This document shows, piece after piece, positions 7,378 to 20,437 of a DNA stretch of 64,000 nt. The DNA lies in the NCBI GenBank assembly GCA_963737155.1, contig CAVTRN010000001.1:128001-192000 (forward strand), given 5' to 3'. Source of the stretch: Nitrospirota bacterium (lineage in GTDB: Bacteria; Nitrospirota; UBA9217). The translations under genes and the position numbers were made by a program. The first letter of the stretch is position 1, and each line of letters begins with the position of its first letter. Below the pieces are notes generated by a model that was not told the DNA's origin, did not search any database, and saw nothing but the letters and a program-made list of their open reading frames with translations.

Positions 7378-8688
7378 TCAAAAGGCTCCGGACTCAATCA
7401 GTTCTGTTAGTGTGGATATATCCACCCCGTAATTAATTTCCGGCTGATTGTCCAATGTGGATTCCGTCCGGAAACACATTAAGTTATCTGCTGGCCATTT
7501 TTTAAACGCAGATCTTTTAATCTTGTGCATAGATTCTGTGAAGAGAATTTTTGCTCTAAGGGCGTCAAAGGAATAACCACGGCCCAATCGATTCATGACC
7601 CTTATTAAATTGTTGAGAGACTCGGTATAAGCGTTCGTGATTTTATGATCAAAGTACGCAAAAATTTCCTCCTGCCAGTTTTCTGTTGCAGTAATTAATG
7701 GATGGTAGGCTTCGAGAAGATTTTGAGGTATGCTCTGCTGCCATCCGTTATATAAGCCAAGCGCTTCGTTTTTGTCTTTTGCATCCCATATATTGAAGAA
7801 TTGCTCTTTAACCTCGTAAACCTCTTTAATATCCTGATAATTGGCGAACCATGTCGCTAGTATAAGTATTTCTTTTGCAGACAAGTCTTTTTGTCTCTTC
7901 AACAAGACGAATCGATCGTGCATGAGTGTTCGACGTTGGGCTGGCGTGAGAGATTGCCGAATTGATTTACGCACTTTTTCAACCGCCTCGTTTGCCATTC
8001 TGACAACATGAAACTTGTCTATGACTATGGTAGCGTCTGGGAATACTGTATTGACAGCATCTCGATAGGGCTTCCACATATCCATTGCGACATATCGAAC
8101 ACGATCTTTACCATCAAGACCGTTTAGATATTTGATGACAGTCTTTTTATTCCGATCAGGTAAGATATTTACGATTGTGTTGTTCTCGATATTGCTGATG
8201 ACAGCTCTGGGTTTCTTAATAATATGAATCTCATCGATACCCATCCACTGTGGTATCTCGAATCGGACTGTTTTTTCAAGTTCGTTCACATAGTCACGAA
8301 AAATGTTCCGTATAGTACCTTCTGCGACTCCAATCTCATCTGCTATGCTTGTGAAAGTACGGCTAAGTGCCTGGCCGCCGACATATTGAACAAGTCGATC
8401 TGTCATTAGTCTTTTGCTATTTATATGAGGCAGTGCTTCAGTAAAGGTTTTACCGCAGCCCCGGCATTTATACCTACGTACGCCGATATACACGCCTACT
8501 CGCTTGCCATGTATCGTCATATCTTTTACAGTGATGTCATCGGACCCATGCCCTACGACATTATTTGATCCGCAGTGAGGGCATATGGTTGACGGTACCT
8601 TGGTCCTCGCATATATATGATAATCATGCTCTGTTTCTTTGAAATTTATGATCTCATAGGCGTTTAGATTGAGAATATTGATAGGCAT
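7378..8688 (-). CDS. ISL3 family transposase
   Basis: CPHCG and RRYKCRGC zinc finger, GIDE, AMDMWKPY, IDKFHVV, TNAYTESLNN; ATG at 8688 overlaps the HEPN stop codon (TAATG). Confidence 0.95.
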   Translation of the reverse strand: MPINILNLNAYEIINFKETEHDYHIYARTKVPSTICPHCGSNNVVGHGSDDITVKDMTIHGKRVGVYIGVRRYKCRGCGKTFTEALPHINSKRLMTDRLVQYVGGQALSRTFTSIADEIGVAEGTIRNIFRDYVNELEKTVRFEIPQWMGIDEIHIIKKPRAVISNIENNTIVNILPDRNKKTVIKYLNGLDGKDRVRYVAMDMWKPYRDAVNTVFPDATIVIDKFHVVRMANEAVEKVRKSIRQSLTPAQRRTLMHDRFVLLKRQKDLSAKEILILATWFANYQDIKEVYEVKEQFFNIWDAKDKNEALGLYNGWQQSIPQNLLEAYHPLITATENWQEEIFAYFDHKITNAYTESLNNLIRVMNRLGRGYSFDALRAKILFTESMHKIKRSAFKKWPADNLMCFRTESTLDNQPEINYGVDISTLTELIESGAF

Positions 8689-9050
8689 TAGGATTCGACC
8701 TCCGGCGGCGTGGGAGGTATCAACGGCGCAAGATTCTCTATCAGGTTTGGTACATGAAACGTCACCACACTCCACATTTCATCCACACCAATCTTATCGT
8801 ACTCGTGAACTAGCACGTTGCGCTGGGCAATTATCTTGCGCCAAGGAATTTCAGGATGATGCTTTTTAAACGCCTCCGTCACTTTGCGAGCGGCCTCTCC
8901 GATGATCTCGATATTGCGTTCGATGGCATCACGTAGCACCTCGTTTTCAGCAAACTCCTCCTGTTTTATCCCGTTAACAAAACGGCGGACCTTCTCTGCT
9001 GCCTGAAGCATGTCCAGGAGATATGCGGCATCCCGTTCATTAGGCCGCAT
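8688..9050 (-). CDS. hepT: HEPN/DUF86 ribonuclease toxin (HepT-like)
   Basis: YLLDML, IEIIGEAA, PEIPWRKI, RNVLVHEY (RX4H motif plus Tyr). Confidence 0.9.
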   Translation of the reverse strand: MRPNERDAAYLLDMLQAAEKVRRFVNGIKQEEFAENEVLRDAIERNIEIIGEAARKVTEAFKKHHPEIPWRKIIAQRNVLVHEYDKIGVDEMWSVVTFHVPNLIENLAPLIPPTPPEVES

Positions 9051-9345
9051 ACAGGACCTCCTTTGTCGTGAGGATCGAGTGCCTGCGGAAAGGATTGCTG
9101 ATGGCCTTTTTCTCGACAAGGTCAACTTCTCTTCCAAATATTGCCTTCAGCTCGTCCAGCATGTCCACGCGATTGTCAAACGTAATACTGCCACCCCGCT
9201 CGAACGTCACCAGCACATCCACGTCGCTGTCGGGACGAAAATCTTCCGTGAGTACCGAACCGAACAAAGAAAATTCCTTGATTTTCCATTTGAGGCAGAA
9301 CTCTTCGATTTTTATCATCGGGATTTGAATATTAGTTTTTAACAT
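9040..9345 (-). CDS. mntA: Minimal nucleotidyltransferase antitoxin (MntA-like)
   Basis: LFGSVLTEDFRPDSDVD (GSx10DxD), GREVDLV; ATG at 9345 after GGAGG. Confidence 0.9.
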   Translation of the reverse strand: MLKTNIQIPMIKIEEFCLKWKIKEFSLFGSVLTEDFRPDSDVDVLVTFERGGSITFDNRVDMLDELKAIFGREVDLVEKKAISNPFRRHSILTTKEVLYAA

Positions 9346-9521
9346 AAGTGCCTCCCACACTAGATTACGATTTGAGTATACATTGTCAATTTGTGAATTT
9401 CAACACTATTTTACGATTTTGCCACGATGTGCACAGGGCATTAAACCAGAGGGAATCCACACTACGTTACGAATACCCATTTTAGATAAGTCTGTTCAGA
9501 ATGACATCCGGTTGGAGAAAA

Positions 9522-18256: not shown

Positions 18257-18378
18257 TCAACCTGTATTTTCACGCATATTTCTAGCGCACGTGAGTGCAG
18301 GATTTCAGGTGAAGTTTGAGTTTCATGTAATATTAGCGAATGTACAAAATTCATTTTGTATCATTGCATTTTGTAGCG
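18257..18378. repeat. Dispersed repeat, copy R3
   Basis: TTAGCGAATGTACAAAATTCATTTTGTATCATTGCATTTTGT. Confidence 0.7.
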
Positions 18379-18594
18379 TGGCCAAGCCCAAGGACGGTGA
18401 TGCATGGGCATGTGTTGCAGTAGTCGACATAACATTGAAGGAGGTTGATACAAAGTTTATTTGTGTATCATACGACTTGGGAAAAGTGGCATGCGCCATA
18501 ATCAATAGTGGCTTGCCTGCTTATTTCGTCGACAAGCTGAGGCATAGGCATGATGGCATTAGCGGATGAAACGGTGCGGTAATAGGGGCAGCTT

Positions 18595-19023
18595 ATGGGA
18601 AAGACAAAAGTGTTATTTGTCGATGTTCACAACAGCGCTCGAAGTCAGATGGCAGAGACGTTTCTCAACGCCTTGGAAGAAGAGAAATACGTCGCAGAAA
18701 GCGCGGGATTGCAGCCTGAAGAGTTGAATCTGATTGTCGTTGAGGTCATGAAGGAAGTCGGGTTTGATATCTCCGGGAAGAAAACGCAAAGCGCCTTTGA
18801 CTGCTTCAAGGCGGGCAAGCGATATAACTACGTGATTACGGTCTGTGATGAAACAAATGCCGAACAATGCCCCATATTTCCGGGATTTACGAAGAGGCTT
18901 CACTGGAGCTTTTCTGATCCCTCACGGTTGCAAGGAAGCCATGAAGAAAAGATCAAGGGGACAAGAATAATCAGAGATCAAATAAGGGCCAGAATAGAGG
19001 AATGGCTCTCGCAGGAACAATAA
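18595..19023 (+). CDS. arsC: LMW-PTP-fold arsenate reductase-like protein with the nucleophile Cys replaced by Asp
   Basis: VLFVDVHNSARSQMAE, SAG, VITVCD...CPIFPG, HWSFSDP, RIIRDQI. Confidence 0.8.
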   Translation: MGKTKVLFVDVHNSARSQMAETFLNALEEEKYVAESAGLQPEELNLIVVEVMKEVGFDISGKKTQSAFDCFKAGKRYNYVITVCDETNAEQCPIFPGFTKRLHWSFSDPSRLQGSHEEKIKGTRIIRDQIRARIEEWLSQEQ

Positions 19024-19365: not shown

Positions 19366-19591
19366 TTCCGTCCTTAAAATGCCACCTGAACTAACCCTCT
19401 GGAATCATTGCAATGATTGCGCATAAGGTATATATTCGTAAATAAGCATAGCTATTAATGTGCCATATTCATTGCTAAATTGAATAACATCGGATTTATA
19501 ATATAATCGAATCCGTTCAATCAACCGAGTTGGTAATCTATGCGCTGATGTTCAAGTAAAATGGACAATTATATCAAAGGAGAGATTTGCC

Positions 19592-20437
19592 ATGACTGAC
19601 CAATTAGGGGAAAATATCATTACACCAACTTGACCGCCATCAGGCGGCACTGGTAGTTGCCGACTAGATAACGTCAAGAAACTGTCTCTGGAATCATCCG
19701 CAGATTTGCAGGAGATCAGGAAAGCAGTACGCTATAAATACGCCGAAGTATCTATTTCGGCAGAGGGGAAGTTCCAATATCTCACAGGTAAGGACGGAGC
19801 AAAGGCCTTGGGATATGATCCCGCCATGATTGAAAGCGCCCACGCTCGGTTCTTTGAATCATCGTGCGGCGTCGGCAATCCATTCTCTTTAGGCAATATC
19901 AGACTGGGAGACGTCATTATGGATTTTGGGTGCGGCGCGGGTTTTGACCTCTTTGTTGCGAGAAAGCTGGTTGGTGAAAGCGGTCGGGTCTACGGAATAG
20001 ATTTAACGGAAAACATGGTATTGAGGGCACGAGAGAATCTCACCCTCGCGGGCATTACGAACTTTGAGATCAAGAAAGTTGATTCAGAAACCATACCCTA
20101 TGATGATAATTCCTTCGATGTCGTGATATCAAACGGTGTCATCAACCTTTCACCGAATAAAGAAACTACTTTCGCGGAGATATATCGAGTTCTTAAGCCA
20201 GGCGGAAAACTTCAGTTTGCCGATGTTGTCCTGGACAAAGAGCTGCCTGCGTCTTTCGCAGGAAGTGCTGATGCGTGGTCGCAGTGAATCGGCGGCGCGG
20301 TCCCGGTCCGGGATCAAATTAGATTACTGGAAGGAGCAGGTTTCAAAGAAATTGAATGGATGGGAATGACAGGCTTCCGTACATCACAATATACAGTCGG
20401 AGCATTGTTTAGGGCAAACAAGACACGTATAGTATAG
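19592..20437 (+). CDS. ArsM-like SAM methyltransferase, predicted selenoprotein with two Sec (281 aa)
   Basis: AAAGGAG RBS and ATG at 19592; in-frame TGA at 19631 and 20285, each followed 11 nt later by a SECIS-like hairpin; CGVGNP, DFGCGAG, VISNGVINL, WSQ-U-IGGA aligning with the ArsM C-terminal catalytic Cys; TAG at 20435. Confidence 0.85.
19645..19662 (+). promoter_or_regulatory. Bacterial SECIS element 1
   Basis: CGGCACU-GGU-AGUUGCCG, 11 nt after UGA 19631. Confidence 0.7.
20299..20315 (+). promoter_or_regulatory. Bacterial SECIS element 2
   Basis: GGUCCCG-GUC-CGGGAUC, 11 nt after UGA 20285. Confidence 0.8.

Follow-up and report, generated by a model that had tools for sequence, protein, structure and literature searches.

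In a Nitrospirota bacterium, a gene of 281 codons specifies a SAM methyltransferase of the ArsM fold in which two in-frame UGA codons are almost certainly both read as selenocysteine (Sec), judging from sequence comparisons. The second of these residues, U232, aligns with the catalytic cysteine Cys224 of CmArsM, and the first, U14, is carried by an N-terminal arm. A first-pass annotation of the same DNA had proposed two Sec sites with SECIS elements, the second at the catalytic-cysteine position of ArsM, and this proposal is supported by the presence of the decoding machinery, the in-frame conservation of both UGAs, the invariance of the hairpin loops and the covariation of the second hairpin. 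The gene lies in a stretch of 64,000 nucleotides (contig CAVTRN010000001.1, positions 128,001 to 192,000), hereafter the window, to which coordinates refer unless another contig or locus is named.

Reading frame and SECIS hairpins

When TGA is translated as U, the gene occupies 19592–20437 on the plus strand, ending with the TAG at 20435–20437, and its Sec codons lie at 19631–19633 (U14) and 20285–20287 (U232). A standard ORF call (19706–20287, 193 aa) recovers only the middle part of this frame. The hidden 281-aa frame had been suggested to start at the ATG at 19592 behind a ribosome binding site, and we indeed find a Shine-Dalgarno-like AAGGAG (19577–19582, plus strand) 9 nt 5′ of this codon. 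A candidate sigma-70-like promoter (19480–19507, plus strand; 10 of 12 positions matched) is weak, the region holding 11 such promoter matches against 6.7 ± 2.4 in shuffled sequences. Both TGAs are unchanged in near-identical DNA of other public runs, where one contig of run X2 spans UGA14 and one of run X1 spans UGA232, although one of the runs may be the source sample itself.

The hairpins of 17–18 nt announced by the first-pass annotation were found exactly 11 nt past each UGA, and both are rich in GC. SECIS1 (19645–19662, plus strand) is 18 nt long, with a 5-bp stem and an 8-nt loop containing GG; SECIS2 (20299–20315, plus strand) is 17 nt long, with a stem of 6–7 bp and a loop containing GU. 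The loop G falls 19 nt past the UGA codon in SECIS1 and SECIS2 alike. Both hairpins agree with the constraints on bacterial SECIS elements in the legend to Fig. 2 of PMC13188914, SECIS1 only if one extra C–G pair closes its loop. In the alignments, the loop GG of SECIS1 is invariant (26 of 26 rows), as is the loop GU of SECIS2 (28 of 28). For SECIS2, 98% of the cells are paired, compensatory changes occur at four of the six pairs, and the score was reached by 0 of 500 shuffles. For SECIS1, 82% of the cells are paired and the covariation is weak (4 of 500 shuffles) and explicable by relatedness.

A geometric hairpin filter, derived post hoc from SECIS1 and SECIS2 themselves, passed 199 of the 176,518 TGA triplets of the genome (0.11%). 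Applied to the 1,351 TGA codons that end frames of at least 200 codons, it retained two, namely U232 and, as a positive control, the UGA of a gene (G000:C1 near 340365, minus strand) that we take from its motif to be of the formate-dehydrogenase-alpha type. The UGA of selD fails the filter, which is thus not fully sensitive.

Sec decoding and conservation of both UGA codons

The first-pass annotation had named two observations that would speak against Sec: a genome without the Sec machinery, and homologs that end at the second UGA with no conservation downstream. Neither is what we observed. The source genome (100% complete) contains selB (374 bits), selA (604 bits) and selD, which itself contains a TGA, each over its cut-off, as well as a tRNA-Sec, which is the sole tRNA with a TCA anticodon. 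Conservation over residues 233–277, beyond the second UGA, is 65.1%, compared with 65.2% in the core.

A search of the phylum gave a match in 107 of 401 genomes, and the best 29 other loci were examined. UGA232 is present at all 29 and UGA14 at 27 of them, always in frame, with 209–233 codons between the two across the loci, and both UGAs and their hairpins are maintained over 56 to 80% identity. We found selB (E ≤ 1e-65) in 27 of the 30 gene-carrying genomes, the source genome included, the other three being 68–86% complete; the background is 52 of 63 genomes in the family and 191 of 401 in the phylum. In 105 of the best 120 protein homologs the sequence stops at the residue preceding U232, and the remaining 15 show W at both 232 and 14, from which we infer gene callers translating UGA as Trp. 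GenBank proteins of close homologs are annotated as fragments of 189–193 aa, and four of the five named close relatives are Nitrospirota MAGs.

At position 232, Sec aligns with Cys both in CmArsM (Cys224) and in Cys forms of the wider clade described below; within the arm-bearing clade no Cys form of U232 was seen. No aligned Cys form of position 14 was found among the best 120 protein homologs and the 29 other phylum loci. Two relatives (L029 in G087, L087 in G188) are broken copies with frameshifts or early ends, in which UGA and hairpin are still recognisable. Two TGAs in G177, which lacks selB, were considered as Sec codons and discarded, both lying 5′ of the real start. A homolog with UGA at 232 and Gly182 (L173) occurs in a genome, G034, that is 77% complete and in which selB was not found.

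The core compared with ArsM

The AlphaFold model (pLDDT 91, 73 rows) is confident in the core, whereas residues 1–30 of the arm have a pLDDT of 40–53, and it shows no docking of the arm onto the core. The closest structures are those of CmArsM, CrArsM and AS3MT (PDB 4fr0, 6cx6, 5evj, 8xt7), with TM values of 0.56–0.69 and ∼30% identity. With CmArsM, CrArsM and human AS3MT the protein has in common the fold, U232 at the position of Cys224, and Cys92 (19865–19867, plus strand; 25 of 25 rows) at that of Cys72. SAM-binding motif I, DxGxGxG (residues 111–117, 19922–19942, plus strand), forms invariant alignment columns and belongs to Pfam PF13847. The arsenic-binding Cys174 of CmArsM is replaced by Gly182 (20135–20137, plus strand) in all 25 arm-bearing rows. 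Moreover, a Cys-rich loop after helix 1 that is present in canonical bacterial ArsM rows is missing here; we take this insertion to be the Cys44 loop.

These replacements affect the residues on which arsenic chemistry depends in the known enzymes. According to PMC6138428, the metalloid site is formed by Cys174 and Cys224, As(III) methylation requires all four cysteines, and these act in a disulfide cascade, whereas our protein has a thiol or selenol only at the Cys72 and Cys224 positions. PMC5552862 describes Cys72, Cys174 and Cys224 as conserved throughout the ArsMs that it retrieved. With Cys174 changed to Gly and no Cys44-type loop, the protein is therefore not a canonical ArsM, and arsenic methylation should not be assumed. 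The initial label 'ArsM-like' holds for the fold, for U232 at Cys224 and for Cys92 at Cys72, but not for the Cys174 and Cys44 positions.

In a tree of core sequences obtained by a quick method with SH-aLRT support only, most arm-bearing proteins fall in a 40-row clade (SH-aLRT 96), with L051 just outside. This clade is nested in a larger Gly182 group that is separate from the Cys174-type ArsMs. The same phylum also has canonical ArsMs that combine Cys174 with Sec at 232 (8 of the 12 weaker matches examined). These eight (L175–L182) come from other families of the phylum and combine a UGA at the Cys224 site with Cys174 and, mostly, the CC loop. A query with our protein found no canonical ArsM in the source genome.

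The N-terminal arm

The arm (residues 1–38, 19592–19705, plus strand) lies outside the ORF call, is predicted to be disordered and carries the motif U14-x-P16. Pairwise identity is 23% in the leader of the arm and 16% in the linker, conservation being limited to U14 and the ten positions that follow it, the codons of which mostly belong to SECIS1. Pro16 lies outside the SECIS stem and is kept in 24 of 25 rows through the use of all four proline codons, which points to selection at the protein level on U-x-P and suggests that it is a protein motif of the arm. Cys23, in a GSC motif, was rejected as a catalytic residue of the arm, its codon being part of the SECIS1 3′ stem and the residue being lost in 3 of 25 rows.

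A DNA pattern combining UGA14 and SECIS1 matched in 18 of 64 family genomes, and its reversed control in none. Sixteen matches are known loci of this gene, and the two new ones are a broken copy and a locus with the same arm running off its contig. The pattern thus matches only this gene type, and no other kind of protein in the 64 family genomes was seen to bear the arm. Beyond the family, three more distant metagenome loci have arms among the matches listed, and an N-terminal C-P motif that parallels the arm occurs at 7 of the 65 more distant Gly182-type loci among those matches, in one subclade. Two close relatives with Gly182 (L049, L050) are arm-less.

Relation to known Sec-containing families

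Both a Sec at the Cys224 site and double-Sec ArsM-like proteins are already known, so that, provisionally, only the N-terminal U14 site appears to be new. The Sec-containing arsenite methyltransferase (ArsM, PRK11873/NF008823; one Sec) has the same fold, SAM motif and Cys72 equivalent, and its Sec, part of a UxxG motif, occupies the Cys224 site, as here. However, our protein reaches 208.2 bits against a cut-off of 263, and it has a second Sec on the N-terminal arm.

The best HMM match is the multi-Sec family ArsM_AhpD_UU (NF041537; 280.6 bits over residues 35–278, below the cut-off of 510), and ArsM_DUF2284_UU (NF041536), likewise multi-Sec, gave 267 bits over the same residues, below its cut-off of 575. 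The AhpD and DUF2284 domains are absent from our protein, and both profiles begin at the core. NF047649 (UXPK-star) shares the core (268.8 bits, residues 36–277 on positions 7–249 of a profile of 283), but the cut-off of 460 is not reached and the profile does not contain the N-terminus of our protein. This family has two Sec and, according to its name, a U-x-P on a short appendage; the unmatched profile end and the naming lead us to assume that the UXPK tail is C-terminal. In our protein, on the contrary, U-x-P lies at the N-terminus, 218 residues before U232, and there is no C-terminal tail, TAG following residue 281. These NCBIfam relatives thus bear their additional Sec in modules appended to the shared core. 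The methyltransferase double selenoprotein MduS has a CxxU motif that is absent here, and no MduS model is among the 25 of 48 NCBIfam matches listed.

The double-Sec families reportedly originate from Haft and Tolstoy 2025 (mSystems). In the literature searched, a body that did not include that study, we found no ArsM-like protein described as having a Sec arm at its N-terminus, and a term search of the main text of the BSepDB paper found no mention of the arm. Table 1 of PMC13188914 contains the Sec ArsM with one Sec in UxxG, for which it cites Fomenko et al. 2007, and three multi-Sec ArsM-like families. The first-pass annotation was hence right about the two Sec residues, but double-Sec enzymes of this kind had already been catalogued in that table.

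Genomic context

An arsC-like gene (18595–19023, plus strand) lies upstream, as had been noted. Its product has Asp where five of five close homologs carry the catalytic Cys, and, on sequence grounds, the gene is probably an inactive relic. Before it lies the C-terminal remnant of a metallophosphoesterase of the ars-operon type (18375–18542, plus strand; 50% identity to residues 180–235 of a full copy), and the two together look like a decayed ars operon. The intact arsR-phosphoesterase-acr3 operon sits on the other contig of the source genome. ArsC as a functional partner was rejected, both for its lost cysteine and because it adjoins the gene at 0 of the 29 other loci searched; the neighbour is real, but the adjacency is not conserved.

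A conserved operon was also rejected, there being no shared neighbourhood across the 30 loci, with 96 of 149 neighbouring ORFs scanned at the other loci. An ArsR with a C-terminal CC motif is encoded just upstream at 3 of 29 loci (G005, G057, G161), and acr3 is nearby at two (G005, G397). At one of the 29 (G151, L052:4886–5971), the homolog has directly downstream of it a gene of the DF family with an in-frame UGA as well as a MerB/SaoL-like lyase. Within the window, a minus-strand gene pair (8688–9360), by eye presumably a module like the minimal nucleotidyltransferase/HEPN-type toxin-antitoxin systems, has a similar pair upstream of the gene in L033.

In G005 and G057, a TsoC-like Sec domain precedes the arm in frame, giving a three-Sec fusion in which arm and SECIS1 are kept. 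These TsoC-arm-methyltransferase genes (L061:8384–9475 in G005; L033 in G057) lie behind ArsR, the TsoC-like domain of G005 scoring 45.4 bits against a cut-off of 45. Downstream of the G005 fusion come selD, tauE and another, incomplete copy of the methyltransferase gene. A tsoC-like gene of G161 lies 1.3 kb 5′ of the methyltransferase gene, and the source genome encodes a free TsoC-like selenoprotein with an in-frame UGA (G000:C2:706192–706425, L170). The latter is preceded by a gene that from its motif we presume to be SelW-like and followed by another methyltransferase. A second TsoC-like copy (C2:77708–77947) is broken by a TAA and lies 5′ of a GrdB-like frame containing UGA. TsoC as an obligate partner is not supported: TsoC-like genes occur in 12 of the 23 gene-bearing family genomes and in 16 of the 40 others. 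A search of the source genome for TsoX gave no match, and its control was likewise silent. Elsewhere, in protein P0188, a TsoX domain scoring above its cut-off (60 bits) is joined to a methyltransferase of the Gly182 type, whose end coincides with the UGA position.

A possible mechanism for the two Sec residues

Our preferred reading, which we hold only tentatively and would not put at an even chance, is that the protein is a soluble class I SAM methyltransferase of the ArsM fold that acts on arsenic or antimony bound to U232, with the U14 arm as second ligand or reductant. SelB bound to each hairpin almost certainly delivers Sec-tRNA to UGA14 and UGA232. The U232 selenolate would bind a trivalent thiophilic metalloid beside SAM, As(III), MAs(III) or Sb(III) being the likeliest. 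Since Gly replaces Cys174 and there is no Cys44 loop, a second ligand or reducing partner would have to come from the mobile N-terminal arm. U14 could then swing into the opened site, where the methylated intermediate would be held or reduced together with Cys92 and U232, and leave as a selenosulfide or diselenide to be re-reduced by a thioredoxin-fold selenoprotein such as a TsoC-like protein. The net outcome would be that metalloids are methylated in a bacterium that uses Sec and for which our query found no canonical ArsM. In favour of this reading are the ArsM fold, the protein-level conservation of Pro16, the persistence of the arm in the three-Sec fusions, the parallel C-P motif, the appended Sec modules of the NCBIfam relatives, and the ArsR, acr3 and MerB/SaoL-like neighbours at a few loci.

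Our confidence of less than one half is for this mechanism as a whole. Several observations count against it. Two of the four ArsM cysteines are missing, Gly182 predates the arm (see below), the arm is undocked in the model and the neighbourhood is not conserved. In addition, the local arsC is probably dead, the co-occurrence with TsoC is unremarkable, and selB is common in the family anyway.

The wider Gly182-type clade and the question of substrate

To place the core in a wider setting, we consider the best 80 of at least 182 metagenome matches, from a search biased towards Gly182; 65 of 79 loci could be classified. Among these matches, Gly stands at the Cys174 position at 59 of 65 loci, most of them arm-less and with Ala at the Cys72 site. 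Position 232, the only conserved thiol or selenol, is UGA at 31 and Cys at 23 of 54 loci among the matches listed. The occurrence of Gly182 in mostly arm-less loci, and in the arm-less L049 and L050, indicates that Gly182 is older than the arm and that the lack of Cys174 does not require an arm to compensate for it. In 22 distant Gly182 proteins scanned, we found fusions to TusA (two), to a cysteine-desulfurase-type aminotransferase (one) and to DsbA/Trx (one). Neighbours of 34 distant loci, with 81 of 124 ORFs scanned, include DsrE (three loci), OsmC (two) and rhodanese-ArsR (two), and neither Acr3 nor ArsC is present among these 81. DinB and ECF sigma/anti-sigma pairs also occur next to loci of this set (L090–L154).

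These partners raise the possibility, in our view a doubtful one, that U232 takes a sulfur or selenium substrate (a persulfide, selenide or small thiol or selenol) from carrier proteins for methylation by SAM, the U14 arm releasing the product. The single conserved Cys or Sec of the wider clade and the sulfur-related fusions and neighbours fit this reading, as do selD and tauE directly after the gene in G005 and the fusion of an arsM-like protein with SelD in Naegleria mentioned in PMC5552862 and PMC4561486. However, the sulfur-carrier neighbours are confined to distant subclades with Ala at 92, whereas the arm clade keeps Cys92 in 25 of 25 rows, and those of its neighbours that are informative tend towards ArsR, Acr3 and MerB; the two neighbour scans covered 96 of 149 and 81 of 124 ORFs.

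A broader form of the idea, to which we likewise give only a minor share of belief, is that the Gly182-type proteins are a large family to which the name 'ArsM' is widely misapplied, roughly one in two being an unrecognised selenoprotein, and that they use a single Cys or Sec to methylate reactive sulfur, selenium or non-arsenic metalloid species and have repeatedly recruited a mobile second selenol or thiol. The recruits, with the same reserve, would be the N-terminal U-x-P arm here and the C-terminal UXPK tail, AhpD, TsoC/TsoX and TusA elsewhere.

Alternative roles for the arm

Turning from the substrate to the arm itself, the protein might work as ordinary Sec-ArsMs do, needing no more than U232 and Cys92, with the arm serving only as a tail for metal binding or solubility. 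In line with this, there are relatives that share the core but lack the arm, one of them (L050/L069) lying divergently next to arsR-acr3, and the core is often named 'arsenite methyltransferase' in databases. We nevertheless consider it improbable, given that a costly second UGA with its SECIS is retained in 27 of 29 genomes and that in the phylum the canonical Sec-ArsMs, which retain Cys174 together with the CC loop (8 of 12 loci), group in a clade of their own.

Quite improbable, too, is a barely catalytic arm whose UGA14 serves chiefly as a translational selenium checkpoint, aborting synthesis after 13 residues when Sec-tRNA is scarce, so that no product cut short at UGA232 is made. In 16 of 28 arm loci, U is codon 14, with an ATG exactly 13 codons 5′ of it, despite the 23% identity of the leader and a linker between U14 and core that ranges from ∼27 to 51 residues, and two of the distant arms (L090, L137) also have U at codon 14; moreover, SECIS1 accounts for most of the conservation past U14, and a Cys form of this position was not seen. 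Yet the leader length is explicable by shared descent, the missing Cys14 form does not discriminate because the Cys form of U232 is likewise absent from the clade, and Pro16 is conserved at the protein level. No conserved RNA structure was found in the leader and ribosome binding site across the arm loci, and the two fusions keep the arm behind another UGA, where a checkpoint would be redundant.

Finally, that the UGAs are true stops (in a broken gene or one for a 193-aa protein) or Trp codons is exceedingly improbable, as the annotated lengths of 189–193 aa and the two broken relatives are outweighed by UGAs and hairpins conserved over 56 to 80% identity and by the undiminished conservation after U232, while tRNA-Sec is the only tRNA with a TCA anticodon and TGA terminates 1,351 long frames.

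Implications

The second Sec site is unannotated in this family, most of whose database entries lack both ends of the protein; 105 of the best 120 homologs stop at UGA232. If the substrate were a chalcogen, the name 'ArsM' would be a misannotation of the large Gly182-type family. Were the broader view of that family true, the gene described here would represent a minimal swinging-selenol-arm design, and surveys based on arsM would overcount arsenic methylation. The protein is a small enzyme with which to ask whether a mobile selenol arm can stand in for the lost cysteines of ArsM. The arsenite methyltransferase labels given to such proteins despite the lack of Cys174 also bear on whether Nitrospirota-type bacteria of soils and sediments depend on selenium to methylate arsenic or employ these genes otherwise.
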